Numbered from the stretch's first letter, positions 3,217 through 48,793 are shown. The stretch: DNA of 64,000 bases from an uncultured bacterium (GCA_964606385.1 CAZSFZ010000010.1:512-64511); one strand, 5' to 3'. The notes: a model not told the origin generated them from the letters alone. Numbers and translations are program-made.

Positions 3217-4024
3217 AACAGCCTCGTTTTTCCTCGCACCGATCACCTCGATTTTTTCCCGTGATGTTTATCAGGATGCTGCGAAGGCTTCAGGCGGCAA
3301 GGGAGTCCTTTATATTCTCTACTGGTCATTTTTAATCGCACTAATCGTTACCATAATGGTCGTTTCTCAGCTGATGCCTATGTCGGATAAGTTTGTTGCT
3401 TGGGCTCAAAAAGAAATGCCTGTTGTCATATGGACGCCAGATGGAATATCCCTTGCAGACGGACAAGAAAAAGCGATTTTAAATCACCCGACCTATGGTC
3501 CTATAGCCATTTTTGATATGAAAAAGACTTCAGTCACGAAAGAAGACATGAGGGAGGTATATGTTTTCGTCACTTCAACCAAAGTATTCGTGAAAAACGG
3601 ATCTGGTTCAATTGAAGAACGCAATATCACCAAGACGGGGCTCAAGGCTCAACGGGAACTTCCTCCCAAGGTGCGAATTACCGGAGAGTGGATAGGAAAA
3701 TTTTACCAGACCGCAAAAAGGGCTTTTATGCTTTTGTTCCCGTTTTTGGTGCTCGCTGGATCATTTTTTGCTTTTTTGATTGGAAATTTGTTGTATTCAA
3801 TCGCGGGTCTTTTGCTTAATTTAATGCGCAAGAGCAAGCTGCGGTATGGGGCGATTTTTAATCTTACTTGTTTCGCGACAGGCGTTTCATTAACCCTGAT
3901 GTTAATCAAAACTTTAACTCCGCTTCGTATGATGCCATGGCCTATTTCCATAAGCATTATTATCAGTTTGCTCTATATGTTTTTTGCGTTCAGGATTACG
4001 GATAGCGATAACGCCAAAGCCTAG
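3209..4024 (+). CDS. Hypothetical membrane protein (DUF1189-like)
   Basis: Start overlaps the greA stop. N- and C-terminal TM segments. Markedly lower GC than its neighbours. Confidence 0.5.
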   Translation: MNKTASFFLAPITSIFSRDVYQDAAKASGGKGVLYILYWSFLIALIVTIMVVSQLMPMSDKFVAWAQKEMPVVIWTPDGISLADGQEKAILNHPTYGPIAIFDMKKTSVTKEDMREVYVFVTSTKVFVKNGSGSIEERNITKTGLKAQRELPPKVRITGEWIGKFYQTAKRAFMLLFPFLVLAGSFFAFLIGNLLYSIAGLLLNLMRKSKLRYGAIFNLTCFATGVSLTLMLIKTLTPLRMMPWPISISIIISLLYMFFAFRITDSDNAKA

Positions 4025-6300: not shown

Positions 6301-6966
6301 ATGAAGGAAACCTTGGAAGCCAGAAAAAAGAGGGTTCGGTCGATCTTCTGCCGTTTGCGCCGGGCTTATCCCGGTATCCAATGCGGCATTCATTTCTCGA
6401 CCCCTTGGGAATTACTGGTAGCCACCATCCTTTCCGCCCAGTGTACCGACAAGCTGGTCAATCAGGTGACGCCCGCTCTCTTCAAGAAATATCCCGATGC
6501 ACGGGCTTTTGCTGAAGCCGATCCCGGAGAAATTGAAAAAGCGATCCATAGCACCGGTTTTTACAGGAACAAGACCAAAAATATCCTCGGCGCGGCCCGG
6601 GAAGTTCTCGAGGGGTTCCAGGGTCAAGTTCCAGCCCGCATGGAGGATCTTGTGACGATCCCGGGAGTGGGTAGAAAAACGGCCAATGTGATCTTGGGGC
6701 ATGCGTTCGGCATACCCGGGATCTCGGTCGACACCCACATGATCCGTATCAACTTCCTTTTAGGTCTGACGCGCCACAAGGATCCCGTGAAGATCGAGTT
6801 CGACCTGATGCAGCTCGTGCCCCGCAGGAACTGGACGCTTTATTCAAGCCTTGTGATCCACCATGGCCGGGTCCGGTGTTTCGCACGAAGGCCCGATTGC
6901 GCCGGTTGCGAGATACGGGCCTATTGCCCTTATGGGAAGCGGCGGGTCGCGTCCGGGCGGGGATAG
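6301..6966 (+). CDS. nth: Endonuclease III (DNA glycosylase/AP lyase)
   Basis: HhH-GPD motif (IPGVGRKTANVIL) and a C-terminal 4Fe-4S Cys cluster CFARRPDCAGCEIRAYC. Confidence 0.9.
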   Translation: MKETLEARKKRVRSIFCRLRRAYPGIQCGIHFSTPWELLVATILSAQCTDKLVNQVTPALFKKYPDARAFAEADPGEIEKAIHSTGFYRNKTKNILGAAREVLEGFQGQVPARMEDLVTIPGVGRKTANVILGHAFGIPGISVDTHMIRINFLLGLTRHKDPVKIEFDLMQLVPRRNWTLYSSLVIHHGRVRCFARRPDCAGCEIRAYCPYGKRRVASGRG

Positions 6967-7036
6967 TTTTAAAGTTTACGCTCGGGGAATCCGAAACTTT
7001 AAGGAAGAGCGCATCACAGTATAAGAGAAAAGGGCT

Positions 7037-8833
7037 ATGACTCCTTTAAAAAATCCGCCGGCCGGACTGGTCCAGACCCCTGAGAATTTTTTCAGGCGTA
7101 AACAGCGCCAGGTTGCTTTTTATCTTAATACCACTTTCCGCCTTCACCTCATTCATTTCGGCTGCTGCCTCCTGATCATTTTTTTTCACATGCTGATCAT
7201 GAGCACGCCGCTCATGGAACGTTTCGAGAACGTTTTTGTCGATTTCTTTTTCCGACAGCGTCCCCCGGTCGCGATGCACCCGGCGATCGTCCATATCGAT
7301 ATGTCGGAAGACAGTCTCCAGGTGTTCGGCCGCTGGCCGTGGCCGAGGTATAACCACGCCGCCCTGGTGCATATCCTCCAGGAATGGGGGGCCAAAGAGA
7401 TCGTATTCGACGTGATCTTCAGCGAAGCCAGTACGACCTTTGATGACGAGGCGCTTAGCCAGGCGATCGAAGAGGCCGGGAACGTTTATTTGCCGGTCAT
7501 GCTGGAGTCCCAGCAGGGCGGAAAGAGCGCTTGGATCCACGCGATGCCGGAGTTTGAAAAATCGGTCAAAGGGCTCGGCCATGTGAATATTTTTCCGGAC
7601 CGGGACGGGACGATCCGCCGCGTGATGCCCGTGCTTTCCCATAACGGCGAGACCTACGCTTATCTCGGGGTCAAGGTGGCCTACGATTATCTCGGCAAGG
7701 ATATTCAAAAAGGGAAACTCAACTTTCCCACCGATCAGGAGGGCAGGCTCTTCATCAACTGGGTCGGGAAATGGAAGAATTCTTTCCAGCATTATTCTTT
7801 TCTGGAAGTGATCAAAAGCTACGCCGCGCTTCGCGAAGGCAAGACCCCGATCATCACTCCCGACAAGATCAAGGGCAAGATCTGCGTGATCGGCCTGACG
7901 GCGCTCGGGCTGACGGATATCAAGGCAAATCCGATGGAAGAAACTTATCCGGCGGTCGGGGTCCAGACCAATGTCATGAACAGCATTCTCATGAAACAGT
8001 ATGTCCGGCCCGTCAATATGAACTGGAACCGGCTGCTCCTTTTCGCGATCGGGCTCCTGCTCTCTTTTTTCTTTCTTTTTTCACGGCAGGTCCTTTCACT
8101 GATCGTCGGGCTCGGGTTCGGCTTTTTATGGTTTATTTTCGCTTTCTGGCTTTTTGTTGACCGCGGGATCCTGATCTATGTGATCAACCCGATCTTGATG
8201 ATCTTTTCACTTTTTGTGTTCTCAGCGGTCTTTTCGATCACGATCGGGAAGCGTGAGCAGGAACGCCTTTTCACCCTGGCGACCCGCGACGGCTTGACGG
8301 GACTCTATGTGATCCGCCATTTCCGCACCTTGCTCAATGACGCGGTCGTGGAGGCCCATAAAAAACAGCAGCCGCTTTCGATCATCCTGCTCGATCTCGA
8401 TTATTTCAAGAAGATCAACGATAAATACGGACACGTGGCTGGAGACGTCGCGCTTAAATATGTCGCGGAAAACCTGCGTTTGATGACCAAAAACGAGGAA
8501 GGCGCCGAAATGAACGCGGTGGGGCGTTACGGCGGTGAAGAATTCATCGTGATGTTCAAGAAATGCCATCTGATCGACGCGGCTTTTAATTACGCGGAAA
8601 AGATCCGAAAACAATTGGAACAGAACTCATTCAGCTATGAAGGCGTGAAGATCACGATCACCGTAAGTATCGGCGCCGCGACGCTGCGGCCCGGAGAAAC
8701 GGTTCCCGATTTGATGGTCCTTCGGGCGGACGAAGCGCTGTACCGCGCCAAGACGGAGGGCCGGAACAGGGTTTGTGTCGAGAAAGACGTTAATGAAGAG
8801 CCTGCCCCCCGGAAGGAAGAAGACGGCCACTGA
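7037..8833 (+). CDS. CHASE2 sensor-domain diguanylate cyclase (GGDEF)
   Basis: N-terminal TM, a periplasmic CHASE2-like region, three C-terminal TMs, then a GGDEF domain with GGEEF active site (RYGGEEFIV). Confidence 0.8.
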   Translation: MTPLKNPPAGLVQTPENFFRRKQRQVAFYLNTTFRLHLIHFGCCLLIIFFHMLIMSTPLMERFENVFVDFFFRQRPPVAMHPAIVHIDMSEDSLQVFGRWPWPRYNHAALVHILQEWGAKEIVFDVIFSEASTTFDDEALSQAIEEAGNVYLPVMLESQQGGKSAWIHAMPEFEKSVKGLGHVNIFPDRDGTIRRVMPVLSHNGETYAYLGVKVAYDYLGKDIQKGKLNFPTDQEGRLFINWVGKWKNSFQHYSFLEVIKSYAALREGKTPIITPDKIKGKICVIGLTALGLTDIKANPMEETYPAVGVQTNVMNSILMKQYVRPVNMNWNRLLLFAIGLLLSFFFLFSRQVLSLIVGLGFGFLWFIFAFWLFVDRGILIYVINPILMIFSLFVFSAVFSITIGKREQERLFTLATRDGLTGLYVIRHFRTLLNDAVVEAHKKQQPLSIILLDLDYFKKINDKYGHVAGDVALKYVAENLRLMTKNEEGAEMNAVGRYGGEEFIVMFKKCHLIDAAFNYAEKIRKQLEQNSFSYEGVKITITVSIGAATLRPGETVPDLMVLRADEALYRAKTEGRNRVCVEKDVNEEPAPRKEEDGH

Positions 8834-9198
8834 TGCCCAAGAAGATATTGATCATTGATGATGAACCCGTGGTGGTGACACTTCTCCGGAACCGGGTGGA
8901 ATCCCGCGGTTTTGAAGTGGAGATCGCCACGGAAGGGGCCGCGGCGCTTGAGAAGGCGAAGGCCTTCCGGCCGGACCTGATCCTTCTTGATATCGCCATG
9001 CCGGGCATGGATGGCTTCGAGGTCTGCCGCCGCCTTAAGGAGGCTCTGGGCACTCGGTCTATTCCCGTTGTGATCTTTACGGCTTCCCAGGAGGCCCGGC
9101 TTGAGGAACAGGCACGAGAGGCCGGGGCCTTCAAATTGGTTCGCAAACCCTTTGTGGACCAGCTTTTCAAAACGATCTCGGAGATCCTGGATTCCTGA
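8833..9198 (+). CDS. Single-domain response regulator (REC only, CheY-like)
   Basis: IIDDEP...LILLDIAMPGMDG...KPF receiver motifs. Start overlaps the stop of the CHASE2-GGDEF gene (ATGA). Confidence 0.85.
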   Translation: MPKKILIIDDEPVVVTLLRNRVESRGFEVEIATEGAAALEKAKAFRPDLILLDIAMPGMDGFEVCRRLKEALGTRSIPVVIFTASQEARLEEQAREAGAFKLVRKPFVDQLFKTISEILDS

Positions 9199-9199
9199 C

Positions 9200-9232
9200 C
9201 GCTGGCGCTTTTCCGGATGCCAGCGCCTTTGT
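9200..9232 (+). terminator. Putative intrinsic terminator after the REC gene
   Basis: 7-bp GC-rich stem (CGCTGGC/GCCAGCG) followed by CCTTTG. Modest. Confidence 0.35.
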
Positions 9233-9313
9233 GGACATAACCCCTTGTTCAGTGTATATTACAGCTCCGTTTGGCGAATTCATCACCGCACTCTTCCATA
9301 AAGGAGCCGTTCC

Positions 9314-9643
9314 ATGAGCAAAGAAAAGGTCCTGACCGATTCCAATTTTCAGACCGAAGTGCTTGATTCCAAGCAACCCGTCCTGGTCGATTTTTGGGCC
9401 GAATGGTGCGGGCCTTGCCGGATGCTCGGTCCCGTGATCGAAAAGATCGCGGCGGCCAATGCCGGCCGCGTCGTGGTCGGAAAAATGAATGTGGATGAGA
9501 ACCCGAATACCCCCCAGAAATACGGGGTCCAGGGGATTCCCACGGTCATTTTCTTCAAGGGCGGGGAAGTCGCGAAACAGCTTGTGGGTTATCAGGCCCA
9601 GGACAAGATCCAAAAAGCCATTGACGAACTTTTTCCCAAATAA
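9314..9643 (+). CDS. trxA: Thioredoxin
   Basis: WAEWCGPCRM active site, 109 aa. Confidence 0.95.
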   Translation: MSKEKVLTDSNFQTEVLDSKQPVLVDFWAEWCGPCRMLGPVIEKIAAANAGRVVVGKMNVDENPNTPQKYGVQGIPTVIFFKGGEVAKQLVGYQAQDKIQKAIDELFPK

Positions 9644-32363: not shown

Positions 32364-33113
32364 ATGCATACTAAAAAGATCCTGGTCGTGGACGATGATC
32401 CGGATGTTCTGGCGGTGCTTTCTCAGAGGTTTGTCTCCTCCGGGTATGAAGTCTGCACCGCTAAAGACGGCGAAGACGCGATCGCCAAGACCAAATCCGA
32501 AAAACCCGCCCTGATTGTCATGGACGTGCTCATGCCGAAGCTTACCGGGTATGAGGTGCTTGAGGCGATCCGGAAAGACGATGCTTCGCGAAAGATCCCG
32601 GTCATTGTTATTTCAGCCAAAGGAAGCATGCGGGAGTTTTTTGCGGACCGTCCCGGAGTGGAGTTCATCGCCAAGCCTTATGATCCCAAGGTGCTTTTGT
32701 CGAAAGTGGAAAGGCTCCTGTGGGAAAGCGGGCAGCAGAATCCGGAGGCCTCAAACCGGGTCGTGCTGCTGGGCGTTCAGGAAGCCCTCACGAACAAGAT
32801 CCAGATGCTTATTCAGTCGCTGAACCATCAGGTTTTTATCGCCTTGAATGAGGAGGACGCCTTTCAGGTGGCGCAGCGGGTGAGCGCCGGCAATATCCTT
32901 TGCCAGTTCTGGGAGGATGAGAGTGTTTTGAGCGCCAAGAAACTCAAAGCGAAATTCGATAATCATCCCTTATTCAAACATGTCCCGCTTTATGTTTACG
33001 CCGAAGACAGGATCTCCGTGGAAGCCCTGAAAGTCTTCTCCACGGGAAGGGTCATCGTCTACAGCACCAAGGAAGAGCTTCTGGAAAAAATAAGCGAGCT
33101 TTTCAGGGATTAA
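32364..33113 (+). CDS. Response regulator: REC domain plus C-terminal degenerate (pseudo-)receiver domain, paralog 1
   Basis: VVDDDP...VMDVLMPKLTGYE...KP REC motifs. The C-terminal half lacks the acidic pocket. Confidence 0.75.
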   Translation: MHTKKILVVDDDPDVLAVLSQRFVSSGYEVCTAKDGEDAIAKTKSEKPALIVMDVLMPKLTGYEVLEAIRKDDASRKIPVIVISAKGSMREFFADRPGVEFIAKPYDPKVLLSKVERLLWESGQQNPEASNRVVLLGVQEALTNKIQMLIQSLNHQVFIALNEEDAFQVAQRVSAGNILCQFWEDESVLSAKKLKAKFDNHPLFKHVPLYVYAEDRISVEALKVFSTGRVIVYSTKEELLEKISELFRD

Positions 33114-33174: not shown

Positions 33175-33924
33175 ATGCCTTCTAAAAAAATCCTCATTGC
33201 CGATGATGACGCCAATCTTTTGACTATTCTCGAGAAACGTCTGATCGCTTCCGGCTATGAAGTGGTGACCGCGAGGGACGGCGCGGAAGCCTTGGCGGTG
33301 GTCGGCGCCCAAATGCCGGACCTGATCGTGATGGATGTTATCATGCCCAAGATGACCGGCTACGAAGTGCTCGAAAAGATCCGCAGTATGGATTCCCTCC
33401 GGAAGATCCCGGCTATCATTATTTCCGCGAAAGGAAGCATGCGGGATTTTTTTATCGATCTTAGCGGCGTGGAGTTTATGTCCAAGCCCTATGAGATCAA
33501 GATGCTTCTTACCAAGGTCGAACGGCTTCTTTGGGAGAGCGAAGGGAAGGATCAGGACGGTTCCAGGCGCATCGTTCTTCTAGGCGCGCAGGAAGCACTT
33601 TTGAATAAGATCCAGGCCGCCGTCGGTGAATTAGGGTATCAGGCCTTTGCGGCGCTCAACGAAGAAGATGCCCTGAATCTGGCGAAGCAGGTAAATGCCG
33701 CGAATGTGCTCTGCCAATTTTGGGAAGATGAGAATATTTTAAGCGCTCCCAAGCTGAAGGAGAAACTGGCCGGGCACCCGCTGCTCGGCGAAGTATCCCT
33801 GCATGTGTATTGCGATGAGAGGCTTTCTTCCGAGGCGATGAGGAGTTTTTCGGACGGACGGCTTCTTATCTATCGCGACGAGACGGATCTGATCGATAAG
33901 GTCGTCGAGCTTTTCAGAGAATAA
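33175..33924 (+). CDS. Response regulator: REC plus pseudo-receiver, paralog 2 (tandem duplicate)
   Basis: Same length (249 aa) as its upstream neighbour and aligns to it without gaps at about 55-60% identity. Confidence 0.75.
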   Translation: MPSKKILIADDDANLLTILEKRLIASGYEVVTARDGAEALAVVGAQMPDLIVMDVIMPKMTGYEVLEKIRSMDSLRKIPAIIISAKGSMRDFFIDLSGVEFMSKPYEIKMLLTKVERLLWESEGKDQDGSRRIVLLGAQEALLNKIQAAVGELGYQAFAALNEEDALNLAKQVNAANVLCQFWEDENILSAPKLKEKLAGHPLLGEVSLHVYCDERLSSEAMRSFSDGRLLIYRDETDLIDKVVELFRE

Positions 33925-36142: not shown

Positions 36143-37564
36143 ATGAGATCCAGATCCTTTTTTTGTCTCGCCCTTTTGCTTCTGCTGCTTTCCTCGGGCG
36201 CCGCTGTTTTTGCCGAGGACATTACCAATGAAGCTCAAACCGTTCAGCGCGAAACTTTTCGTGCGGATCAGGCCGAACGGGTTGCCGAAAAATCCAAGGA
36301 AAAAGCCGACGCGGATAAGTACAAGACGGGCGTCACGTACGAAGACATTCTCAAAGATCCGGACAATATCGAGCTGAACGCCCGTTATGCCCAGGATCAG
36401 ATCGCCCGGGGGGAGCTTTTAAGCGCGGCCGCGACCCTGGAGCGCATGCTGCTCGTGAACCCCAATCTGGCGGATGTGCGGCTCTTATACGCCGTGGTCC
36501 TGTACCGCTTGGACAGCCTTAATGAAGCCCAGAAGGAACTGGAATCTCTCAAGACCGTTACGCTCCCGCCGGAGATCCGCACCCAGGTTACGGAATACGA
36601 GAAAAAGATCAAATCGAGGAAACGCCGGACCCGTTTCGGGATCCGTCAAAGCGTAGGGTGGGGCTATGACACGAACCGGAACGCGGCGCCTTCTTCGAAA
36701 TTCCAGCTGGTGAACGATATCGCTCAGCCTCTGACCGGGTCCAATACCCGGCATCCCGACACTCATTTTTTGAATATTTCCAGCTTTGACGTGACGCATG
36801 ACCTGGGCTTTCAGGCCGGGCACTCGGTGTTCGGAAACTTCACCTACTTTCTCCAAGAGCAAACAACGGTCGATTCGCTGGATCTCGGATCTTTTCAATA
36901 TGAGTTGGGCGGTACTTACAAATGCCGGTGGTTTGATTTCTCCCCGTCCTTTATTGCGAGCAACATCTTTCTTTCCCGGGAAAGCTTTTTGAGGACCCAG
37001 GGCGGGAATTTTCTTTTCGAGCGGGACGTGACCAAGAAGATCAAGGCTTTCTATGACTTCCGGATGGAGCGGCAGGATTATCTGAATACGACGGAAAATA
37101 CGGATTCTTACGATTATAAAGGCCCGGAGTTCAGCCATTTCTGGGGGGCGAGCTACGTGATCCTTCCGACCATGAAATGGACCACGAGCCTCGGTTTTTC
37201 AGATAAATCCGCCAAACAAAGCTATAACGCTTATGACCGTCTGAGTCTTAACAATTCACATACCTGGGTCCTTCCCAAGGGACAGTTCCTTATTAACGCG
37301 ATCAATGTGAATTTCGATAACTACGATCGCGCGGAAGAGACCGTGGCTGGGAAGGTTCGTCACGACAGAGCGATGAGATATCGCATTACTTACGGGACGC
37401 CGCTCAACACGATCTTTTTTAACAGTAAGCTTCTCATCAAGCCGCTCAAAGACATCGTCTTTACGGGCTCCTACGAGATCTACCGCTCCCTCTCCAGCAT
37501 CACCAATTACAGTTATACAAATAACAAGTTCCAGCTCATGCTCACCAAGCGATTGGAGTTCTAG
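36143..37564 (+). CDS. Outer-membrane beta-barrel protein with N-terminal TPR region (Slam/DUF560-like architecture)
   Basis: Signal peptide, TPR-like helices, an aromatic-rich beta-strand region and a C-terminal Phe. Confidence 0.55.
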   Translation: MRSRSFFCLALLLLLLSSGAAVFAEDITNEAQTVQRETFRADQAERVAEKSKEKADADKYKTGVTYEDILKDPDNIELNARYAQDQIARGELLSAAATLERMLLVNPNLADVRLLYAVVLYRLDSLNEAQKELESLKTVTLPPEIRTQVTEYEKKIKSRKRRTRFGIRQSVGWGYDTNRNAAPSSKFQLVNDIAQPLTGSNTRHPDTHFLNISSFDVTHDLGFQAGHSVFGNFTYFLQEQTTVDSLDLGSFQYELGGTYKCRWFDFSPSFIASNIFLSRESFLRTQGGNFLFERDVTKKIKAFYDFRMERQDYLNTTENTDSYDYKGPEFSHFWGASYVILPTMKWTTSLGFSDKSAKQSYNAYDRLSLNNSHTWVLPKGQFLINAINVNFDNYDRAEETVAGKVRHDRAMRYRITYGTPLNTIFFNSKLLIKPLKDIVFTGSYEIYRSLSSITNYSYTNNKFQLMLTKRLEF

Positions 37565-37566
37565 TC

Positions 37567-38907
37567 ATGAAAAAAACGATAGCCTCCTTTTCCGTTTTCT
37601 TTCTCATGATCTCGGAGCCTTTGCTTTTCGCTCAAATGGCGGTTCCCATGCCGGCGATCGCGCAGGCTTCTGGTTTGGAGAGGGTGGGTGTGGTCGCAGC
37701 GGCGGGAGGCAAGGTCGAGTTGACAACGCCGGGACAGGTGGGGCGCATCGCTCAGAGCGGTCAAGCGATCTTCCTTGGGGATGAGGTCAGGACCGACGCC
37801 CTGGGTCACCTTCAGATCCTTCTCTTGGATGAAACGGTTTTTACGATCGGTCCGAACAGCACGATCATCATTGATAAATTCGTATATGACCCCAAGAGCC
37901 AAAAGGGCGAGATCAAGGCCAGCATCACGAAGGGCGTTTTCCGTTATGTGTCCGGAAAGATCGCGGCCAAGAATCCCGACGCGGTCAAAGTCAAGCTTCC
38001 CGCGGCGACGCTCGGATTCCGCGGGACGATCGTCGGTGGATCAGTCGGCGGGAACGGCCAAGGGCTTGCGGCGCTTCTGGGTCCGGGGTCCAACAATGAC
38101 GCCGGCGCTCCGGGGGGTAATTTTACCATTGAAGGAACAGACGGCGGTTTCCAAAGTGTCAGCCGGACGGGATTCGGGGTCGAATTCGACGGGAATGGAG
38201 GCGTCTCGGGAGTGTTCCAGTTATCCGGTGACCAGATCAACGGCCTGACGGGAGGCCTTGGCGGCGGCGCTCCGGGAAGCGGAGGTCAGGGTTCCGGAGG
38301 AGGCAATGAGAACGGTTTTGGTGGCGATGGCAATATGGGTAACCTTTCCGGCGAGAATAATGTGCTCGGTGGGATGAATGGGAACATGATAAACGGCATT
38401 TCCGGTTTTGCGGATGGACTTTATGCTCAGAGCGTGATCGGGGCCCAGGAGGCGGCTCAAAGCGGGGTATCCGGAGTGAAGGACGGCATTACTCAATCTT
38501 CGGATCTCTCCACGATCACAAGCGGGGTTTTCCATTACTATGCCACGGGAACCTATTATGGATCTGGAACCATGACGGCTGAAATTGATATTGATTTTTC
38601 TTCCAAGACAATTGTTGGGGGCAACTCTTACGTTTCTATTAGTGACGGGGCGTATAGCGACAAAACTGCCGGAATGTCCACTCCTGTGTCCTTTGGCAGC
38701 TCCGGAGATGCGACTTTTCATTGGACTAATGTTTCTGGAAGTTCTGGAACCTTTACCAATATTAATATCACGCTTTTCAATTCAGGAGGTGTTGTTGCGG
38801 AACAAGCGACGGTAAAGGTTGATTATGTTCCGATTAGCGTTGGCCCGGCTTCCGGCAGCGGAAGTGCCGAAGGGCCCCGTTTGGACGGGCCGACACCGGA
38901 TGTTTAA
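37567..38907 (+). CDS. Secreted FecR-domain protein, paralog 1, with Gly/Asn-rich and Ser/Thr-rich C-terminal extension
   Basis: Signal peptide. FecR-like core GDEVRTDALGHLQILLLDETVFTIGPNSTIIIDKFVYDP...TLGFRGT. Confidence 0.7.
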   Translation: MKKTIASFSVFFLMISEPLLFAQMAVPMPAIAQASGLERVGVVAAAGGKVELTTPGQVGRIAQSGQAIFLGDEVRTDALGHLQILLLDETVFTIGPNSTIIIDKFVYDPKSQKGEIKASITKGVFRYVSGKIAAKNPDAVKVKLPAATLGFRGTIVGGSVGGNGQGLAALLGPGSNNDAGAPGGNFTIEGTDGGFQSVSRTGFGVEFDGNGGVSGVFQLSGDQINGLTGGLGGGAPGSGGQGSGGGNENGFGGDGNMGNLSGENNVLGGMNGNMINGISGFADGLYAQSVIGAQEAAQSGVSGVKDGITQSSDLSTITSGVFHYYATGTYYGSGTMTAEIDIDFSSKTIVGGNSYVSISDGAYSDKTAGMSTPVSFGSSGDATFHWTNVSGSSGTFTNINITLFNSGGVVAEQATVKVDYVPISVGPASGSGSAEGPRLDGPTPDV

Positions 38908-38956
38908 AAAACTGAAAACTAGCCCATTTTGAATTCAAGGCGGTAAGGAAAATCCC

Positions 38957-39868
38957 ATGAAAAAAATTTTTGTTTTAATGTTGGTGGTTTTTGCCAGTTT
39001 GTTTTTTATGATATCCGGCAGTTTGTTTGCGATGGAGATGCCCACCCAGGCGGGAGTTGCGGCAGCCGTAAAAGGCGAGGTCAAGGCCACAACGCCTCCG
39101 GATAAAACTCCTCATGTGCTGAAAAGCGGCGACAAGGTCTATATGGGAGATAAGATCGAGACGGGCGATCAGGGGCAGCTCCAGATCCTTCTTCTGGACC
39201 AGACGGTTTTTACTCTCGGGCCGATGAGCTCCATCACGGTCGATGAATTCGTCTATGATCCTTCCAACGATGACGGGAAAGTGAAGGCGAGCGTGATGAA
39301 AGGCATCTTTCGCGTCGTGTCAGGCAAGGTAGCGCACAAAAAACCCGAGAACATGTCGGTCGATCTTCCCTCGGGAACGATCGGTTTTCGGGGTACCAAT
39401 GTAGCGGGGATCATTGACGGACAAAAGTCGACCGTCGTCCTGCTCGGGCCCGTAGGTGTCGGGCGCATTTATGTGACGAATATCGTGAACGGCGAAGTTG
39501 TGGGAGTGGACATCGATGAAGTCGGGAACGCGACGATCGTCGACGGGCCTAACAGCGCTCCCGTGGCGGTGTTCCAGGTTTCGCAGGAGGTTCTCAACCA
39601 GATCGCCACAGCCCTGGGCCAGCCTGTGACCGGTGCTGACACGGCCGGAACGGACACGGGGACTCCTTCTTTTCCAAGAGGGCCGGTGGATACCCAGGCC
39701 TTGATGGATCTTTTGAATCAGGTCGATGATCTGAATCAGACCAGTGTCATCGGCGCCCAAAGCGCGGCTCAATCTTCCGCTGAAAGCGCTGCCAAAGACC
39801 ACTCGGATTCAAGGAATGCAAATTCGGGCAGCGATACCGGCAATAATTACACAGTAACCCATCCGTAA
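38957..39868 (+). CDS. Secreted FecR-domain protein, paralog 2
   Basis: Same FecR-like core (QLQILLLDQTVFTLGP...TIGFRGT). Shares the SVIGAQxAAQS motif with paralog 1. Confidence 0.7.
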   Translation: MKKIFVLMLVVFASLFFMISGSLFAMEMPTQAGVAAAVKGEVKATTPPDKTPHVLKSGDKVYMGDKIETGDQGQLQILLLDQTVFTLGPMSSITVDEFVYDPSNDDGKVKASVMKGIFRVVSGKVAHKKPENMSVDLPSGTIGFRGTNVAGIIDGQKSTVVLLGPVGVGRIYVTNIVNGEVVGVDIDEVGNATIVDGPNSAPVAVFQVSQEVLNQIATALGQPVTGADTAGTDTGTPSFPRGPVDTQALMDLLNQVDDLNQTSVIGAQSAAQSSAESAAKDHSDSRNANSGSDTGNNYTVTHP

Positions 39869-39923
39869 CGGACAGGTGTTTCAGGATCGACCTGAACCTT
39901 CAAATTCCGAAAGGGCTCCCTTT

Positions 39924-40829
39924 GTGAAAAAAACATTGTTTGTTTCTTTATTTGCGACCCTTTTCATTTTTTCCGTCCTGCTCGGGCAAATGTTGCCTTC
40001 CGCTTTTGCGTTGGAACCTGCTGTCGGAGTGGCTGGGGGAATTCACGGCACAGTGACCGTGATCTCGAAAGAGGGGGAAACACGGACCCTCCAGGGCGGG
40101 GATCCGGTTTATCTCGAAGACCGGTTGACCACGGAAGCTGACGGCCGCCTTCAGATCCTTCTTCTTGATGAAACCGTATTCACGGTGGGTCCTGAGAGCA
40201 GTATCACCGTAAAAGAATTTATTTATGACGCTTCGGCGGGAAGCGGTAAGCTCAAAGCCGATGTCATCAAAGGTTTTTTCCGGATCATTTCAGGCAAGAT
40301 CGCCCACCAGGATCCTGAGAATATGAGCGTCGAGCTTCCCGCCGGTACGATCGGATTTCGCGGGACGATGGTCATGGGAAGATCTGAAGGCACCCGGTCG
40401 CTTGTGGTGCTTTTGGGTCCCGCCGGCGGGGAAGGAGTTCGTCCGGGACGTATTTATGTAGCCAATATCGTGAATGGTGAGGCATTGGGTGTCGAGATCG
40501 ATCAGAAAGGTTATGGAACCGTGATCGAAGGCGATAACACGGCCCCTCTTCCTGCTTTTAAAGTGACGGAGGAAGAGCTCGAAATGCTCAATCAAGCCCT
40601 GAATGCGGATTCCGGATCGACCCATGAGACTGCCGTGGGCCAGGGAGAGGGTGGTAACGCTTCCCGGGCAAATTTCGATTCAGGACATTTGCCGGAAGCT
40701 TTTTCCTTAATGTCCCAGATGGATGAGCATCTCCAACGAGCTGCCCAGGGCGGGATGCTGACGCCCACTCCGGCGGTTACTCCCGTGACCGTTCCCGGGG
40801 GCCGCGATGACGACGGAGGCGACAAATAA
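39924..40829 (+). CDS. Secreted FecR-domain protein, paralog 3
   Basis: Same core (RLQILLLDETVFTVGP...TIGFRGT). GTG 39924 is preferred because it immediately precedes the signal peptide; ATG 39876 is the alternative. Confidence 0.65.
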   Translation: MKKTLFVSLFATLFIFSVLLGQMLPSAFALEPAVGVAGGIHGTVTVISKEGETRTLQGGDPVYLEDRLTTEADGRLQILLLDETVFTVGPESSITVKEFIYDASAGSGKLKADVIKGFFRIISGKIAHQDPENMSVELPAGTIGFRGTMVMGRSEGTRSLVVLLGPAGGEGVRPGRIYVANIVNGEALGVEIDQKGYGTVIEGDNTAPLPAFKVTEEELEMLNQALNADSGSTHETAVGQGEGGNASRANFDSGHLPEAFSLMSQMDEHLQRAAQGGMLTPTPAVTPVTVPGGRDDDGGDK

Positions 40830-40866: not shown

Positions 40867-43089
40867 TTATTTTGAGTCCGCGGTGGTCGTGCCGTCCCAA
40901 TTGGGTCCCGGGGGATTGATCTTGAAGGCAAGGATACGGGAAACATAAAGCTCGTACAAAATGCCGAGGTCGATCCCCGGAAGCGTGACGTGGCGGCAAC
41001 GCTCCAGCAATTTCTCAGCTTCTTCCCAGCGTTGGGCCCGGTAGGCCGCGAGCATCTTTTCGAAATTTCCACGGACCTCCTGAAAAAGCGGCTGGGCGGC
41101 TAATCCCGAATTCCCCAAAAGGGCGAAGATCCTCACCGGTTTTGTTTTTCCCTTCACGCGGATCATATCGATCTCAAGGAACGCGAGTTCCGGTACCTCT
41201 GCGACCGTGTTTTGTCCGGCGACGGTTGTGACGCCGTAATTTCTGGAGAGGCTCTCAAGACGTGAAGCCAGGTTTACATGATCGCCCAGGACGGTGTAGT
41301 CGAAACGCTGCTCCGACCCCATGTTGCCGACGCAGGCCTGTCCGGAGTTGATCCCGATCCCGATCTTGACGGGCGGCAGAGGATGAGCGCCTTTTTCGCT
41401 TTGCGTATTCCATTCCCTGACGAGGACCTGCATGTCGAGCGCCGCGAGGCAGGCGTGCCGGCTATGCTCCTTGTCTTCCATCGGCGCGTTCCAGAACGCC
41501 ATGATGCAGTCCCCGATGTATTTATCGATCGTGCCCGCGTGTTTAAGAACGATGTCCGTCATCGGCGTGAGGAATTTATTCATGAAATGCGTGAGCTCTT
41601 CCGGCTTCATCTGTTCCGCGATACCGGTGAAATTACGGATGTCCGTGAAAAGGAAGCTCATGACGCGGATCTCGCCGCCGAGCTTGAGCTGCTTCGGATT
41701 CTTGGCGAGTTTTTCGACAAGCACAGGCGAAAGATACCGGCCGAAAGCCCCGCGGACCTGACTGCGCTCCCATTCGGTTCCGAGGAAATTCAAAAACGAA
41801 GAAACAAGGAAGATAAGAGAAATACCGAGGGACGGGAATACCGGATCGATCAAGCGTTGTTCACGCACGAATTGATACCAGGAGAGTCCGAAGACCGACA
41901 CGATCGCCAGGATGCCGATCGCGGCGCAGTAGATCGCCCCGACCCTGGGCAGGATCAAAATAAGAAGCAGTCCCATGACGACCAAAAAGGTGAATTCCGC
42001 GCCGACGGCCCAATCCGGACGGTTCAAAAAATCCCCCGTGATCATTTGTTCCGCGACCTGCGCGTGGACATCGACGCCGGCCGCAAGCGGGTTCAAGGGC
42101 GTGGAACGCATATCTTTGAGCGCCTGGGCGCTTGAACCAATGAAAAGGATCTTGTCCTTGACGGCGGCTAGCGCTTCATCGTCTGAAAGGATCTTCCACG
42201 CGGGGATATAGCGTTTGGACTGATAACCCGTATCATAAAGCCAGACGCGTCCCCGGTTATCCGTCGGAACTTTCAAAAGGCCGAATTTGATCTCCACGAT
42301 GCCGGTTTCCGCGCCGAAAGAAGCTTCGTCTTTTGTGCCGCCGGCCAACGTAATAATGTAATTCGAGGCATCCTGGTAAACCCGCATGGCCTCGAGCGCT
42401 AACGAGGGATAGATCGAATCGTTCAGGCGATAGAAGGACGGGACCCTGCGAACGATATTGTCCCATTCCAGATCGATATTAAAGCAACCATTCCCCTTGG
42501 CGGCTTTTTCCAGAGGAGGAAGATCCAGGACCGCGCCTTTAAAAACGGGGAAAATGTACTTGGACGGATTGTCATCGATCGAGCCGCCCCGGTGCGAAAT
42601 CCCGGCTTTGGACGCGGGGACTTTTTTATTTTTTTCGTTGGTCAGCGCGAAACCCAGGATCACCGGAGAGTGTGAGATGACTTTTGCGAAGACATCGTCA
42701 TGATCGGGGATCATTTCAAGCTGTGCGCGTAGAAGTTCGCTGGCGGAACCCTCGGTCCATAGAGGAATGATGCTTTTCGGGGAGGTCCGGTCGGGTTCGG
42801 CGAAAACACCGTCAAAAGCGATCACGGTGGCGCCGCCCTCGACGAGGCGTACGATCAGCTTTCCAAGAATGGTCCTGGGCCACGGCCACTGGCCGGCCTT
42901 TTCCAGGCTCTCGTCGTCGATATCGATGATGCGGACCGGGGTGTCCTGATAAACGCGCGGCTTGATCATTTGAAAGATGTCAAAGACCTTGGCGCGGAAG
43001 GACTCGATCGGTTCGGGAAAGGAGAAATGAAAGACGACGACACCCAGGAGGATCAGGGCAGGGATAATATAGGAAAGTGCCTTTCGCAT
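40867..43089 (-). CDS. CHASE2 sensor-domain class III adenylate/guanylate cyclase
   Basis: N-terminal TM, CHASE2-like periplasmic region, three TMs, then a cyclase domain (FLFTDIRNFT...KYIGDCIMAFWNAP...GDHVNLASRLE). Confidence 0.85.
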   Translation of the reverse strand: MRKALSYIIPALILLGVVVFHFSFPEPIESFRAKVFDIFQMIKPRVYQDTPVRIIDIDDESLEKAGQWPWPRTILGKLIVRLVEGGATVIAFDGVFAEPDRTSPKSIIPLWTEGSASELLRAQLEMIPDHDDVFAKVISHSPVILGFALTNEKNKKVPASKAGISHRGGSIDDNPSKYIFPVFKGAVLDLPPLEKAAKGNGCFNIDLEWDNIVRRVPSFYRLNDSIYPSLALEAMRVYQDASNYIITLAGGTKDEASFGAETGIVEIKFGLLKVPTDNRGRVWLYDTGYQSKRYIPAWKILSDDEALAAVKDKILFIGSSAQALKDMRSTPLNPLAAGVDVHAQVAEQMITGDFLNRPDWAVGAEFTFLVVMGLLLILILPRVGAIYCAAIGILAIVSVFGLSWYQFVREQRLIDPVFPSLGISLIFLVSSFLNFLGTEWERSQVRGAFGRYLSPVLVEKLAKNPKQLKLGGEIRVMSFLFTDIRNFTGIAEQMKPEELTHFMNKFLTPMTDIVLKHAGTIDKYIGDCIMAFWNAPMEDKEHSRHACLAALDMQVLVREWNTQSEKGAHPLPPVKIGIGINSGQACVGNMGSEQRFDYTVLGDHVNLASRLESLSRNYGVTTVAGQNTVAEVPELAFLEIDMIRVKGKTKPVRIFALLGNSGLAAQPLFQEVRGNFEKMLAAYRAQRWEEAEKLLERCRHVTLPGIDLGILYELYVSRILAFKINPPGPNWDGTTTADSK

Positions 43090-43115
43090 GTCCAATTCTC
43101 TATTTAAAAATTAAC

Positions 43116-45259: not shown

Positions 45260-46126
45260 CTAAGGAAGAAAGACGTGATTGACCGGAGGTTTTTTCTCCG
45301 GAGGAGGCGGGGGTTCGGGAGAAGCCGGCTTGTATCCCGTATCTTCCCGCATGGATTGCAGCGCCTGTTCATAATTCCCGCCGTAGCGCAGCATATTCCA
45401 CACAAGCATTCCCCACAGGGACAGCGCGACCGTCTCAAAAAGAAAGATCCATACGTCCGGGGCGCCTTGAAAAAGATAAGGGACCTTCAAAGCCCAGCGG
45501 ATCCCCTGGTCCAAAAATCCCACACAGGCGACCATGAATACGGCGCGGGAGGCGCCTCTTTGTTTGCAAAAAAAACAAAAACACGCGGTCAGGACAAGCA
45601 CTGCGAGCATAAAATAAAAAAATGCGAGCTTTTCCGAGGAGCATGAGGCCCAACTGCCGGTGATCCATTCCCGGCCGAACGCGGTCCCCTGAAAGATCCC
45701 GAGGGCGCTATAGTAGAGAAAACGGAAGATCAGCAACGTAAAAACGGCTCCTCCGTTCAAAAGAGCGCCGATCCTGGGTCCGGTCATGTTGAGTTGTTTG
45801 CTGATGAAACGGGTGATGCTGTCGAGAACATGCGCGGGGACCTCTTCGAACCGGATTCCCGTGGAAAGCATTCCCCTGCCTTTCCCTTTGGCGGGCATCT
45901 GATGGACGACGCGGCCTCGAAAAACGACTTTACCGATACTCCCGCGAAGCCCCAGACGGAGTTCGATCACGGAATCTTTTTCGACGGGTTGGCGTGTCAG
46001 AAGCCCCAGGCCGCTTGTGCTGAGGTCTACGGAAAAGGCCTTCGTCCATCGTGGGGAACCGGGAGTCTTAAAAAAAACAGGAAAGCGGGACCTTAACCGG
46101 AGGCACAGCCGGTCGCCGATACCCAT
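45260..46126 (-). CDS. PilZ-domain protein with C-terminal TM segments
   Basis: RLRSRF...DLSTSGLGL PilZ c-di-GMP-binding motifs. Four C-terminal TMs. Confidence 0.7.
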   Translation of the reverse strand: MGIGDRLCLRLRSRFPVFFKTPGSPRWTKAFSVDLSTSGLGLLTRQPVEKDSVIELRLGLRGSIGKVVFRGRVVHQMPAKGKGRGMLSTGIRFEEVPAHVLDSITRFISKQLNMTGPRIGALLNGGAVFTLLIFRFLYYSALGIFQGTAFGREWITGSWASCSSEKLAFFYFMLAVLVLTACFCFFCKQRGASRAVFMVACVGFLDQGIRWALKVPYLFQGAPDVWIFLFETVALSLWGMLVWNMLRYGGNYEQALQSMREDTGYKPASPEPPPPPEKKPPVNHVFLP

Positions 46127-46452
46127 TACCAGACCTTCTTGAAATAGCGGGTGTAATGATTTTCGTCGATACGGCTGATCTCTGCGGGTTCGAGTTTGAG
46201 AGAGCCGTCATTGACCTCCAGCACGATCTCGCGGTCGTTGCGGCTCAAGATGCGACCGCTCATCATTTTTCCGCTTTTAAGATAGACGAGATCCGTGTCC
46301 AGCAAACGGGCGACGGGGAAGACGAGGCGGGTTTTTTGTCCGGCAAAATCCAGGGCTACGGCCCCGAGGACCCCTGAAATAACGCCTAAAAAAAATATCC
46401 CGATCAAAAGGACCCAGGTTCGAAGCACTGAAGGTCTGGCTGTGTCCGGCAT
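46126..46452 (-). CDS. Small N-terminally anchored hypothetical protein
   Basis: Single TM. Translationally coupled to the PilZ gene (1-nt overlap). Confidence 0.45.
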   Translation of the reverse strand: MPDTARPSVLRTWVLLIGIFFLGVISGVLGAVALDFAGQKTRLVFPVARLLDTDLVYLKSGKMMSGRILSRNDREIVLEVNDGSLKLEPAEISRIDENHYTRYFKKVW

Positions 46453-46549
46453 GAAGAGCTCTCCTTTTTTATGGATTATCGGATGATCCCGGAATAAGCT
46501 TCACGCACGGCGAGGATTTTTTATTCGCCGATTCTGCCGGGAACCGGTG

Positions 46550-47794
46550 TCAGGTGGTGACTCCGGTGTCCCAGGCGAGGCTGTTCATTTCTTGCCAGGT
46601 TAGAACGTTTATCTGATCGTTCGCATTCGGGTCCGGGGCAGGGGTGGTTGCCATAGCCAGATCGAAGTGGACCGTGGGATTGCCCCCTCCGAACGTCGAA
46701 AAAGTTTTTGCGACTACAGCCCCGTAAATGACCCCGCCCTTTCCGGAATTAGACGTCTGAAAAGACACATCCGAATTCGGCGCATAGAGCCCGCCCATAA
46801 AAGAGCCGTTTCCTCTGAGAAGCACACTCGAGTTACCAGTCACATAAATGTGGAGATTCGAAGGTTGATTCTCGGCTGCGGTGGTCCCTTGTCCGGTGAT
46901 GGCGACGCTACCGTCAACGTAGATTTTGACAGCTCCGGTTGTTACGATCGCTCCTTTATTTCCCGAAAGGTGGATGGAGCTGCAGTGGTAGGTTCCGGCG
47001 GTCAGAGTCACGGCTCTTGTGATATTGCTGAGATCGATCTCGGTCGGAGGTGTCTCGAGCGACGCCATATCAGGGGGTGCTCCAAGCGTCCAGCCCGTTG
47101 GTAAAGTTCCGGTTCCTTGAGTAATGGTTGAATTGTTCGTGGTGATTCCGGTGCTCGGATTGCCGTCCTCGTTAACCAGAGCGGTGCCGTGGACCGTAGT
47201 ATTCGTCATCGCGATGGCCCCGATGGCGGTCGAATTCGCAGCAATCGCGCCATCACCGCTGGTGTTGGCCCCGCCGTACGGCAGGCTCGAAGTGTAACTG
47301 TCAAATCTGAAGCCCGACAGGTTCATCGATTGCGTCACATAAACACCGTAGTCAAAAAGACCGCCCGGAGCCGGGGCTTTATAAATCTGGGCATAGACAG
47401 TGATATCAGAGGTTTGATAGGCCCGCGAAGTGGTGGCGCAGCTCGGGGCGCAACCCGTCGCGTCAATTCTACGCATCAAAGGTTGATTGGTGACAGGGGA
47501 GATCGTATACCGGTACTCCCCTTGAGCCAGAGGGAGTGGGCCGTAATCATGAGCGGCGCTTGCGGTTTCGATTTGCCCTGCCTGACCGTTTCCCAGATAT
47601 CTGAGCGCGGCATCGATGCCGGCTTCCGCGGCGTTAAAAGCCAAAATTCGATTCTGATATCGTTCCGTGCCTTGCATCGCGGCCTGATGCCTCGCGAAGA
47701 AAGCGAACGCAAAAATGGCGACCACGACCACAACGATGTACACGACCAAAAGAACAAAACCTTTTTTATTGGATATGGATTTTAGAGTTTTCAT
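46550..47794 (-). CDS. PilX-like minor pilus assembly protein
   Basis: N-terminal MKT...KKGFVLLVVYIVVVVVAIF PilX-N-like hydrophobic segment. Thr/Gly/Asn-rich body. Confidence 0.6.
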   Translation of the reverse strand: MKTLKSISNKKGFVLLVVYIVVVVVAIFAFAFFARHQAAMQGTERYQNRILAFNAAEAGIDAALRYLGNGQAGQIETASAAHDYGPLPLAQGEYRYTISPVTNQPLMRRIDATGCAPSCATTSRAYQTSDITVYAQIYKAPAPGGLFDYGVYVTQSMNLSGFRFDSYTSSLPYGGANTSGDGAIAANSTAIGAIAMTNTTVHGTALVNEDGNPSTGITTNNSTITQGTGTLPTGWTLGAPPDMASLETPPTEIDLSNITRAVTLTAGTYHCSSIHLSGNKGAIVTTGAVKIYVDGSVAITGQGTTAAENQPSNLHIYVTGNSSVLLRGNGSFMGGLYAPNSDVSFQTSNSGKGGVIYGAVVAKTFSTFGGGNPTVHFDLAMATTPAPDPNANDQINVLTWQEMNSLAWDTGVTT

Positions 47795-48375
47795 GGGTTT
47801 CTCGCCTCCGCTTGCGTGGTAAGCACTATGGGTTGATCCGGGATTGTCCGGCCGTCCGGAAGTGTTAGTTGAGCGCTTATTTGGATCATGACGAGCGGGG
47901 AGATCGCGCTCGGTCTCGAGAAGCTAAGAGCTGTGACGTTGTTAGCAAGAACGCTTTGTTTGACTGTCGGATTGCCCTCTTCGTCCAGGATAACGGAGGT
48001 TCGAAGGATTTGTTGTGTGTTCGAGTCCAGAAAGTACCTGATGTCGGCCGCCCAAAGCGGCGAATAGCTGCTATCCACGAGTGTTGACTCATCCGGTTCA
48101 GGAACAGGGACCCTGAAGTTGATCTCATTGCCTGCCATTATGTTCCCGCTTCCAAAGTCCGTGATTTCATTATACGCAGTTTGGCGAATCTCTTGGGCCA
48201 TCTTGAACAGAGCTTCGCGCGGGCCTTCCTGGAGGGTCATTTTGGCATGAATCGTATTAAGTTGATTGCTGCTTGCCTGCAGGATCGCGAATGTGCCAAA
48301 AAGGATGATCACAGAAATAGCGGTCGCGATGATGATCTCGACAAGCGTGAAACCGCATTTCATGGTCTTCATTTC
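47791..48375 (-). CDS. Type IV minor pilin-like protein (PilW-like)
   Basis: Prepilin N-terminal cleavage/methylation motif KCGFTLVEIIIA. Overlaps the downstream gene by 4 nt. Confidence 0.7.
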   Translation of the reverse strand, partial: EMKTMKCGFTLVEIIIATAISVIILFGTFAILQASSNQLNTIHAKMTLQEGPREALFKMAQEIRQTAYNEITDFGSGNIMAGNEINFRVPVPEPDESTLVDSSYSPLWAADIRYFLDSNTQQILRTSVILDEEGNPTVKQSVLANNVTALSFSRPSAISPLVMIQISAQLTLPDGRTIPDQPIVLTTQAEARNP

Positions 48376-48376
48376 A

Positions 48377-48793
48377 TCATCCCCTTTGTGTGATATAAGT
48401 CTCAACCGTCTCCGTACTTTGACGCCCCGTATATGATGACCATGTTACCGTGACCGTGCAGACCAAGGGGTTTGCTGCCGGGTTTTGGTAGGTCACCGTC
48501 ACTTGTTCGTTCGTCAAACTGTTGAATCCTGCCACAGGGCCATTATCCGGGTAGGCCGTAACGACACTGGCAGGGAATGGATCGGTATTTGAAATAGTCC
48601 TCATTTGTTCAATAACCTGGTTCGCATTCTGGATTGCGACCGTGCGCTCATTCATTTCCTCGGTATTTTTGTGTGCTTGGATATTAGCTCCCACATAGCT
48701 CAGGATCACTACCGTTAAGATCACAAGAGCGATCATGAGTTCTGCTAACGTGAAGCCTGCTTTTTTCCCTAATAGAACCGTCCTTTTTTTCAT
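48377..48793 (-). CDS. Type IV minor pilin-like protein (PilV/GspH-like)
   Basis: Prepilin motif KKAGFTLAELMIALVIL. Start at MKKRT (48793). The ORF-track 43-aa extension is rejected. Confidence 0.7.
   Translation of the reverse strand: MKKRTVLLGKKAGFTLAELMIALVILTVVILSYVGANIQAHKNTEEMNERTVAIQNANQVIEQMRTISNTDPFPASVVTAYPDNGPVAGFNSLTNEQVTVTYQNPAANPLVCTVTVTWSSYTGRQSTETVETYITQRG

Follow-up and report, generated by a model that had tools for sequence, protein, structure and literature searches.

A FecR-domain gene trio between a Slam-like outer-membrane protein and a CHASE2 cyclase: a candidate envelope signalling module

Introduction

What do three tandem FecR-domain proteins do, and do they belong with the genes on either side of them? 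The question is raised by positions 37,567 to 40,829 of a 64,000-nucleotide stretch of DNA from an uncultured bacterium (GCA_964606385.1 CAZSFZ010000010.1:512-64511; the window), where three such genes, here called P1, P2 and P3 in order, follow one another on the plus strand. A reading made earlier from the sequence alone had described a constant sensor or partner domain with diversified low-complexity tails, and had left the trio unconnected to the gene that converges on it from downstream, which encodes a cyclase with a CHASE2 sensor domain. Here, we report that the trio very probably forms a functional unit with this cyclase and with a Slam-like outer-membrane protein (OMP) encoded directly upstream. 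With a probability of roughly 0.6, we read the unit as an envelope signalling module in which FecR-like, Sec-exported proteins are the middle layer between an OMP resembling those of Slam/type 11 secretion systems (T11SS) and a CHASE2 cyclase that probably makes cyclic AMP (cAMP). It is a new combination of known kinds, joining a T11SS-like OMP and cargo to FecR/CHASE2 signalling like that of NsrA, an outer-membrane protein of Sinorhizobium meliloti.

Two separate questions meet at such a locus. The ligand of the CHASE2 sensor is listed as unknown in the Pfam description quoted in PMC5192318, and T11SS OMPs outside one animal-associated cluster are mostly without known cargo (PMC12282271). A T11SS consists of a DUF560 OMP and its cargo, in which a variable N-terminal effector precedes a C-terminal barrel of eight strands; some of the known cargo is soluble and unlipidated (PMC12282271). 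The systems described so far are from Proteobacteria, with cargo such as TbpB, fHbp, hemophilin and NilC that serves metal or haem capture, adhesion and immune evasion. The T11SS cargo survey makes no mention of FecR, CHASE2 or cyclases, and our literature search found no paper connecting Slam/DUF560 with FecR or CHASE2.

Results

The trio and its conserved partners

All three proteins clear the 24-bit gathering cut-off of Pfam FecR (PF04773) with 29.7 (P1), 40.5 (P2) and 31.3 bits (P3), and 58 of 58 members of the P1 family match the same Pfam model. No Pfam domain besides FecR was found in P1, P2 or P3. The conserved unit, which we call the N-module, is about 195-205 residues long, double what Pfam FecR covers. 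Within the Pfam FecR stretch the three share 53-64% pairwise identity, which falls to 39-55% when the full N-module (P1 residues 38-232) is compared and to 25-29% in the tails, where few positions can be aligned; P2 and P3 are the closest pair. Tandem FecR paralogues with a constant core and differing C-termini are therefore what the locus encodes, as the sequence-only reading had it, and the motifs it quoted from the core, LQILLLDxTVFT and GFRGT, are present. By inspection, each protein starts with a Sec signal peptide of the MKK-hydrophobic-AxA type. None of them contains a single cysteine, so that a lipobox, whose absence had also been pointed out, is impossible; the proteins do not qualify as bacterial lipoproteins, and this identity is ruled out for all three.

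The genes for the OMP, P1, P2 and P3 share one strand with operon-like gaps of 2, 49 and about 55 nt, and 37 nt separate the stop codons of P3 and the convergent cyclase gene (Table 1). We surveyed the conservation of this order in 79 loci with N-module relatives, taken from contigs of one genome per species with 10-kb flanks and scanned with our own hidden Markov models (HMMs) for the N-module, the C-terminal barrel described below, the OMP barrel, CHASE2 and the cyclase domain. A Slam-like OMP gene lies directly upstream on the same strand at 52 of the 74 loci with enough upstream sequence. When both flanks are available (n = 64), 39 loci carry the OMP together with a CHASE2 cyclase, nine the OMP only, two the CHASE2 cyclase only and 14 neither. 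The cyclase thus occurs within the flanks of 41/64 loci, mostly no more than 2-3 kb from the FecR gene, and its orientation is convergent at some loci and co-directional at others. The loci span Omnitrophota, Elusimicrobiota, Deltaproteobacteria/Myxococcota, Alphaproteobacteria, Spirochaetales and Planctomycetia, and across these phyla the CHASE2 cyclase is the most conserved partner of FecR-module genes. The form seen most often is one gene encoding an N-module, a linker and a barrel (43 loci), and arrays with two, three or four genes are all but limited to Omnitrophota.

The window itself appears to derive from a Candidatus Omnitrophota genome, to go by the source names of identical and near-identical proteins. 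The proteins themselves are widely conserved. Independent metagenomes contain about 100 orthologues of P1 (45-62% identity along almost the entire length) and more than 100 of P2 (60-75%), while full-length orthologues of P3 are rare (P0361 at 59%, plus copies in loci L004, L005, L006 and L083). A search with P3 against 1.84 billion representatives returned 14,152 cluster representatives at E <= 1e-3, matched over residues ~25-250 and mostly 400-600 aa long. The possibility that the differing tails are assembly artefacts is ruled out by these orthologues, which carry the tails in many independent assemblies.

Selection was measured against the closest relative, L083, at a dS of about 1 that makes the ratios approximate, and on a contig without an orthologue of P1; we used this relative instead of comparing the paralogues with one another because synonymous sites are saturated at 39-55% amino-acid identity. 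dN/dS is 0.036 for the OMP, 0.035 for the N-module of P2 and 0.08 for a helix motif in the P2 tail. The genes are under purifying selection, which together with the intact orthogroups rules out a reading as pseudogenes. The OMP is the most conserved gene of the group, with 60-82% identity in Omnitrophota.

A natural fusion of FecR, TPR and barrel beside a CHASE2 cyclase

The S. meliloti replicon pSymB carries, directly upstream of cyaK, a gene annotated 'FecR domain-containing protein'. Its 1190-aa product combines a FecR domain (residues 66-160, E 1.8e-15), tetratricopeptide repeats (TPR, ~417-587) and a C-terminal outer-membrane barrel, and our N-module HMM recognises it (E 8.7e-8). By position upstream of cyaK and by size, we identify it as NsrA. 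The CHASE2 cyclases CyaK and CyaD1/D2 require NsrA, an outer-membrane protein, to respond to a protein signal derived from the plant, and the barrel loops of NsrA alone are thought to be surface-exposed (PMC7529298, PMC13001267), so its FecR part would be periplasmic. NsrA provides the only genetic demonstration that cyclase signalling depends on a FecR/outer-membrane component (PMC7529298). The parts match those of the window (a FecR domain, TPR and an outer-membrane barrel, with a CHASE2 class III cyclase encoded alongside), but NsrA unites FecR, TPR and barrel in one polypeptide, whereas the window splits a TPR-barrel OMP from separate FecR-module proteins. The NsrA barrel (~600 aa) is not detectably related to the Slam-like barrel, and NsrA has neither an 8-stranded cargo-type barrel nor an array of paralogues.

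Related pairings have been described elsewhere. The Burkholderia 'BiofilmReg' system places a secreted LysM-FecR protein beside a CHASE2 histidine kinase (PMC5192318); it differs from the window in its peptidoglycan-binding LysM tether and its histidine kinase output. In Campylobacterota, a CHASE2 adenylate cyclase occurs with a FecR 'outer membrane protein' as well as a TPR protein (PMC9239204), a cluster that is probably the same module as that of the window. A Slam-like OMP and a cargo-type barrel were not recognised in these two reports, nor were paralogue arrays described. In a minimal variant, three consecutive genes at 6848-9446 of locus L088 (Paraburkholderia aromaticivorans plasmid pBN1) encode a FecR-domain protein of 150 aa, a member of the OmpA family and a protein with a CHASE2 domain, which by their domain content represent another envelope tether of a FecR module beside a CHASE2 receptor. 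At two further loci, L085 (Shinella plasmid p1) and L090 (an Ensifer plasmid), TPR, FecR and CHASE2-cyclase genes sit inside NHLP-type bacteriocin export clusters with C39 peptidase ABC transporters and an HlyD-like secretion protein, and in L090 also a cyclic-nucleotide-binding protein. This gene content hints that the cyclase may control peptide export in the clusters of these cultured Rhizobiaceae.

P1 resembles a T11SS cargo

The OMP has the N-terminal periplasmic TPR domain of a T11SS OMP. In the window copy, matches to TPR_19 (22.9 bits) and TPR_9 fall just under the Pfam cut-off; among 57 homologues at 44-82% identity, TPR_19 is found in 53 and TPR_Slam (PF24575) in 12. The barrel domain SlipAM (PF04575) is matched by 17/57 of these homologues (best E 1.3e-8) and DUF2860 by 16/57. 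The combination of TPR and a SlipAM-type barrel that defines the likeness to T11SS is thus seen at the level of the family. Searched with a profile of the OMP, the sequences of the Protein Data Bank (PDB) gave no match.

We modelled P1 with AlphaFold2 (AF2) on an alignment of 58 family members. The mean predicted local distance difference test score (pLDDT) is 80.7; the N-module and the C-terminal domain both exceed 90, and the linker between them is below 50 over most of its length (residues 234-286 and 292-301). Modelled alone, the C-terminal domain folds into eight strands with a pLDDT of 93.9 and a predicted template-modelling (TM) score (pTM) of 0.88. Its top Foldseek matches in the PDB are exclusively the C-terminal domain of NHBA (6cuj, E 1e-3), fHbp barrels and hemophilin (7re4/7rea), with TMq 0.5-0.6 and a probability of 1.0, while lipocalins and designed barrels reach a TM of at most 0.34. 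The same three families surfaced when full-length P1 was searched. In sequence comparisons, one of 64 related barrels matches FHBP_C (E 1.8e-4) and one of 64 TbpB_B_D (E 3.5e-4), a Shinella relative matches FHBP_C at E 0.002, and a broader barrel profile (A6) finds hemophilin 8glo_A as its best PDB sequence at a marginal E of 0.01. A narrow profile of the C-terminal barrel (A5) found nothing meaningful among PDB sequences, and Pfam scans of the P1 C-terminal domain and of the P2 tail gave no match up to E 10. Separately, 13 of the 58 P1-family members weakly match Pfam DUF7354 (best E 0.0048).

On the predicted model, P1 has the architecture of a T11SS cargo: a Sec signal peptide, an N-terminal domain in the position of the variable effector, a disordered region and an 8-stranded C-terminal barrel, encoded next to the OMP. 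Several traits set the locus apart from described T11SS: a FecR-like module takes the place of the effector, a CHASE2 cyclase is present as a conserved third partner, the setting extends to Omnitrophota and other phyla, and the paralogues P2 and P3 are barrel-less. P1 residues 233-302 (33% G, 13% N) and the Ser/Thr/Gly-rich beta domain that follows them correspond to a Gly/Asn tract and a Ser/Thr-rich beta-like domain that had been noticed in the sequence. The pair is real, and AF2 recasts it as a 70-aa disordered linker followed by a confidently predicted 8-stranded barrel rather than free-form low complexity. Across 59 relatives that bear a barrel, the linker joining it to the module is G/A/S-rich and at least 47 aa long, with a median of 71 and a maximum of 244. 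An AQ-type motif occurs within the last 30 aa of 29/59 linkers, against 5.7 expected from shuffles. It belongs to a helix-like tail motif that lies directly before the barrel in P1 (GLYAQSVIGAQEAAQSG) and recurs in P2 (VDTQALMDLLNQVDDLNQTSVIGAQSAAQ) and P3 (AFSLMSQMDEHLQRAAQGG). The element SVIGAQxAAQS, reported earlier for P1 and P2, is present in both, and P3 carries a degenerate copy (QRAAQGG).

The barrel HMM has no match in P2 or P3, whose tails of only 72-78 aa do not provide the barrel of a T11SS cargo. The sequence-only reading had called the trio probably not canonical Slam substrates. That judgement suits the barrel-less P2 and P3, and is misleading for P1, which carries a predicted cargo barrel, is encoded 2 nt after the Slam-like OMP gene and, like cargo already known, could be secreted unlipidated (PMC12282271).

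Structure and relatives of the N-module

In Foldseek searches, about 150 residues of the N-module superpose on the C-terminal cell-surface-signalling domain of PupR (6ovk_R, E 5e-4, 152 columns), and the module also matches 4m0n, a Bacteroidales anti-sigma protein. Another likeness covers only part of the module, its first ~60-70 residues. These match the anchoring domain (region I) of the RTX adhesin MpIBP (5ix9) at 27% identity and TMt 0.77, and NCBIfam retention_LapA at E 6e-8 (P3) and 1e-5, below the model cut-off; the N-module family profile also finds 5ix9 by sequence (E 1.1e-4). In the RTX adhesins LapA and MpIBP, the retention module sits on the periplasmic side of an outer-membrane pore or channel and the remainder of the adhesin is outside. 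By analogy, we propose that P1 has a similar topology, in which its module would be periplasmic and the remainder would point outward. The adhesins differ from P1 in their route, a type I secretion system with a TolC-like channel as opposed to Sec and a Slam-like OMP, and in their RTX repeats, which are absent here; no LapG or LapD gene was seen near the locus.

Barrel-less paralogues and the evolution of the array

A neighbour-joining tree of N-modules places all barrel-less forms in one clade, split into S1 (P2-like) and S2 (P3-like), and separates the barrel-bearing forms into two orthogroups, B1, which includes P1, and B2. The three genes of the window are, on this tree, not recent copies of one another. 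Judged from sequence, P2 and P3 are an old barrel-less lineage in which the helix motif is the only conserved element of the tail. The last ~30 residues of P2 are unconserved in the family profile and evolve almost freely: dN over the last 28 codons is 0.375 against L083, compared with 0.04 in the core. The Gly/Asp-rich tail end described for P3 is also seen. The view of the tails as diversified low-complexity ligand or partner tails had to be revised, because the P1 barrel is folded and P2 and P3 form one barrel-less clade with fast-evolving tail ends; P1 has a spacer and a barrel, P2 and P3 a short helix motif.

The array is B1-S1-S2 in the window and in L005, B2-B1-S1 in L084, L008 and L009, and B1-S1 in L001, L012 and L018; L004 and L006 have two barrel-less genes only. 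In L083, where the OMP protein is 95% identical to that of the window, an open reading frame (ORF) of 82 aa at 3295-3543, between the OMP gene and the P2 orthologue, aligns with the barrel HMM over its C-terminal half (positions 76-146, E 3e-8). This match suggests either that the barrel-bearing first gene was deleted down to a remnant or that the contig is misassembled. Because the orthogroups B2, B1, S1 and S2 occur in differing subsets among close relatives, we conclude that the coupler layer undergoes birth-and-death evolution alongside an OMP and a cyclase that remain fixed. Within the P1 family, mean pairwise identity is 62% in the N-module and 33% in the barrel.

Gene starts, the cyclase and the surrounding genes

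The longest ORF of P3 runs from 39876 to 40829 with a GTG start and adds 16 residues (MFQDRPEPSNSERAPF) before the signal peptide. The true start is most likely the GTG at 39924, giving an MKKTLF... N-terminus, because GAAAGGG precedes it and the best relative aligns from residue 1. Scans for promoters and terminators did no better than on shuffled sequence.

The Lys/Thr substrate pattern of the cyclase (DKYIGD...DYTVLGD) suggests an adenylate cyclase, probably making cAMP. Within ~7 kb, the neighbours of the trio are AddB, two response regulators, a helicase, the OMP, the cyclase, a PALP enzyme and a PilZ protein. The response regulators are tandem paralogues, each with a REC domain and a C-terminal half of ~130 aa, and keep their position in L001. 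Beyond the cyclase lies a group of genes, syntenic in L084, whose content would be compatible with a possible cyclic-nucleotide control of a pilus-like apparatus. The window also encodes a second CHASE2 receptor, of the CHASE2-GGDEF type, with no FecR-module or Slam-like gene adjoining it.

Table 1. Features of the FecR-domain locus and its surroundings (positions in the window)
Feature	Position	Strand	Description
Slam/T11SS-like OMP	36143..37564	+	473 aa; signal peptide, TPR ~60-165, C-terminal beta-barrel ~166-473, final residue Phe
P1	37567..38907	+	446 aa; signal peptide, FecR-like N-module, disordered linker, predicted C-terminal 8-stranded barrel; B1 orthogroup
P1 N-module	37678..38262	+	residues 38-232; FecR-like beta module
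P1 linker	38263..38472	+	residues 233-302; Gly/Asn-rich, predicted disordered; final part is the helix motif GLYAQSVIGAQEAAQSG
P1 C-terminal 8-stranded beta-barrel	38473..38886	+	residues 303-440; predicted fold of T11SS cargo barrels
P2	38957..39868	+	303 aa; signal peptide, N-module, 78-aa tail; barrel-less; S1 orthogroup
P2 N-module	39038..39634	+	HMM match
P2 helix motif	~39683..39781	+	conserved
P3	39924..40829	+	~301 aa; signal peptide, N-module, 72-aa tail; barrel-less; S2 orthogroup
P3 N-module	40011..40619	+	
P3 tail		+	degenerate helix motif and Gly/Asp-rich end
CHASE2 and class III nucleotide cyclase	40867..43095	-	742 aa, inner-membrane, convergent; periplasmic CHASE2 domain ~19-377; Pfam CHASE2 E 5.4e-51, Guanylate_cyc E 9.9e-22
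CHASE2-GGDEF receptor	7037..8833	+	598 aa; CHASE2 E 2.7e-52, GGDEF E 1.3e-35
Response regulator	32364..33113	+	249 aa
Response regulator	33175..33924	+	249 aa
Genes beyond the cyclase	45260..48405	-	PilZ-domain membrane protein, 108-aa protein, DUF7305 protein, N-methyl (pseudopilin-like) genes

Discussion

Our reading of the locus as an envelope signalling module builds on its domain content, the predicted folds, a gene order conserved across phyla, purifying selection and the natural FecR-TPR-barrel fusion beside a CHASE2 cyclase. From these we infer secretion driven by the OMP, the topology of P1, the binding partners and the nature of the signal. The OMP would recognise the barrel of P1 and place it at or in the outer membrane. 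The N-modules would act in the periplasm, where they may contact the TPR domain of the OMP, the periplasmic CHASE2 domain or both, and would set the activity of the cyclase, the probable output of the module. P1 would be a coupler that its cargo-type barrel and long spacer tether to the outer membrane. Lacking the barrel, P2 and P3 would have to stay periplasmic, either tuning the signal as soluble couplers or competitors, or serving other CHASE2 receptors; the CHASE2-GGDEF protein may be such a client. A periplasmic protein-protein relay, as in FecR and PupR, is a plausible role for the N-module by analogy with these regulators. That the N-module is much better conserved than the barrel agrees with an internal partner that is itself conserved and with greater exposure of the barrel, the reverse of a host-facing T11SS cargo.

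A bolder version of this module is tentative, and we would sooner doubt it than adopt it. The OMP would export the barrel of P1 only, with the spacer of at least 47 aa threaded through or beneath the pore and the FecR-like module left in the periplasm, where it would gate the CHASE2 cyclase. Surface events would in this way be turned into cAMP directly, and P2 and P3 would be rivals for the same docking sites and adjust the gain. What many CHASE2 domains bind, their long-unknown 'ligand', would in that case be another protein and not a small molecule.

Several observations weigh against the signalling module as we draw it. The surveyed loci were picked by their similarity to P3, so the co-occurrence fractions are no unbiased census, and 14/64 loci have neither an OMP nor a CHASE2 cyclase near the FecR-module gene. 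The barrel of the window OMP has no Pfam match even at E 10, and the assignment of the OMP to Slam comes from the matches of 17/57 close homologues. The likeness of the P1 barrel to cargo barrels is one of predicted structure (TM 0.5-0.6, E ~1e-3), with marginal support from sequence. In the Omnitrophota loci L004, L006 and L083, the OMP is strongly conserved in the absence of an intact barrel-bearing FecR gene in the array, and the link between OMP and FecR proteins therefore cannot depend on the barrel alone. Finally, a threaded, half-exported topology is without precedent in the T11SS family, whose known cargo is fully translocated.

The main rival explanation is plain secretion, in which P1 is a fully exported T11SS cargo that works outside the cell in adhesion or binding, its periplasmic paralogues P2 and P3 are unrelated to this role, and the cyclase is a mere neighbour or a regulator of expression. 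The complete cargo architecture of P1 and its position 2 nt after the OMP gene speak for it, as does the release of soluble cargo already known, for example hemophilin (PMC12282271). P2 and P3 also resemble Leptospira FecR-domain proteins, the NCBIfam surface adhesin Lsa33 and lipoprotein LipL45, although at E values of 2e-8 to 4e-4 that are far below the cut-offs. We nevertheless hold this explanation to be unlikely, for it leaves aside that the CHASE2 cyclase accompanies the OMP-FecR pair in 39/64 loci, in distant phyla and in both layouts, and that FecR modules pair with CHASE2 receptors even without an OMP (PMC5192318; Paraburkholderia L088). In the NsrA-type fusion, moreover, the FecR part is periplasmic to the barrel, and the protein is required genetically for CHASE2 cyclase signalling (PMC7529298). 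An effector module far more conserved than its barrel is likewise the opposite of what a host-facing cargo shows.

That each paralogue joins the constant domain to a tail with its own ligand or partner, as the sequence-only reading proposed, seems to us less probable still. Tail identity is indeed low beside a conserved core, each paralogue belongs to its own conserved orthogroup, which makes some division of labour likely, and the CHASE2-GGDEF receptor without an adjoining FecR gene would offer a second partner. Yet the tails differ mainly in whether they include a single folded barrel domain. In P1, the low-complexity tract has the behaviour of a spacer, variable in sequence and length, and beyond the helix motif the tails of P2 and P3 are poorly conserved and fast-evolving, which suggests relaxed constraint rather than specific binding surfaces. 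The Pfam matches and the structural likeness of the N-module to PupR and 4m0n could also suggest classical FecR-type anti-sigma factors of TonB-dependent cell-surface signalling. Architecture and neighbours rule out this identity for practical purposes: the proteins have no cytoplasmic anti-sigma domain and no membrane-spanning helix or anchor besides the cleavable signal peptide, no gene for an extracytoplasmic function (ECF) sigma factor or a TonB-dependent transducer lies among the neighbours within ~7 kb, and the output here is a nucleotide cyclase.

The locus links the question of CHASE2 input to that of T11SS cargo, as it presents a Slam-like OMP, a cargo-like FecR-type protein and a CHASE2 cyclase as one conserved unit. 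If our reading of an envelope signalling module is correct, it would offer a testable route from outer-membrane signals to cyclic-nucleotide synthesis and would extend T11SS-type machinery beyond Proteobacteria and beyond nutrient capture. It would also explain the widespread secreted 'FecR domain-containing proteins' that occur without a sigma/anti-sigma context, to which the cluster representatives found with P3 belong.

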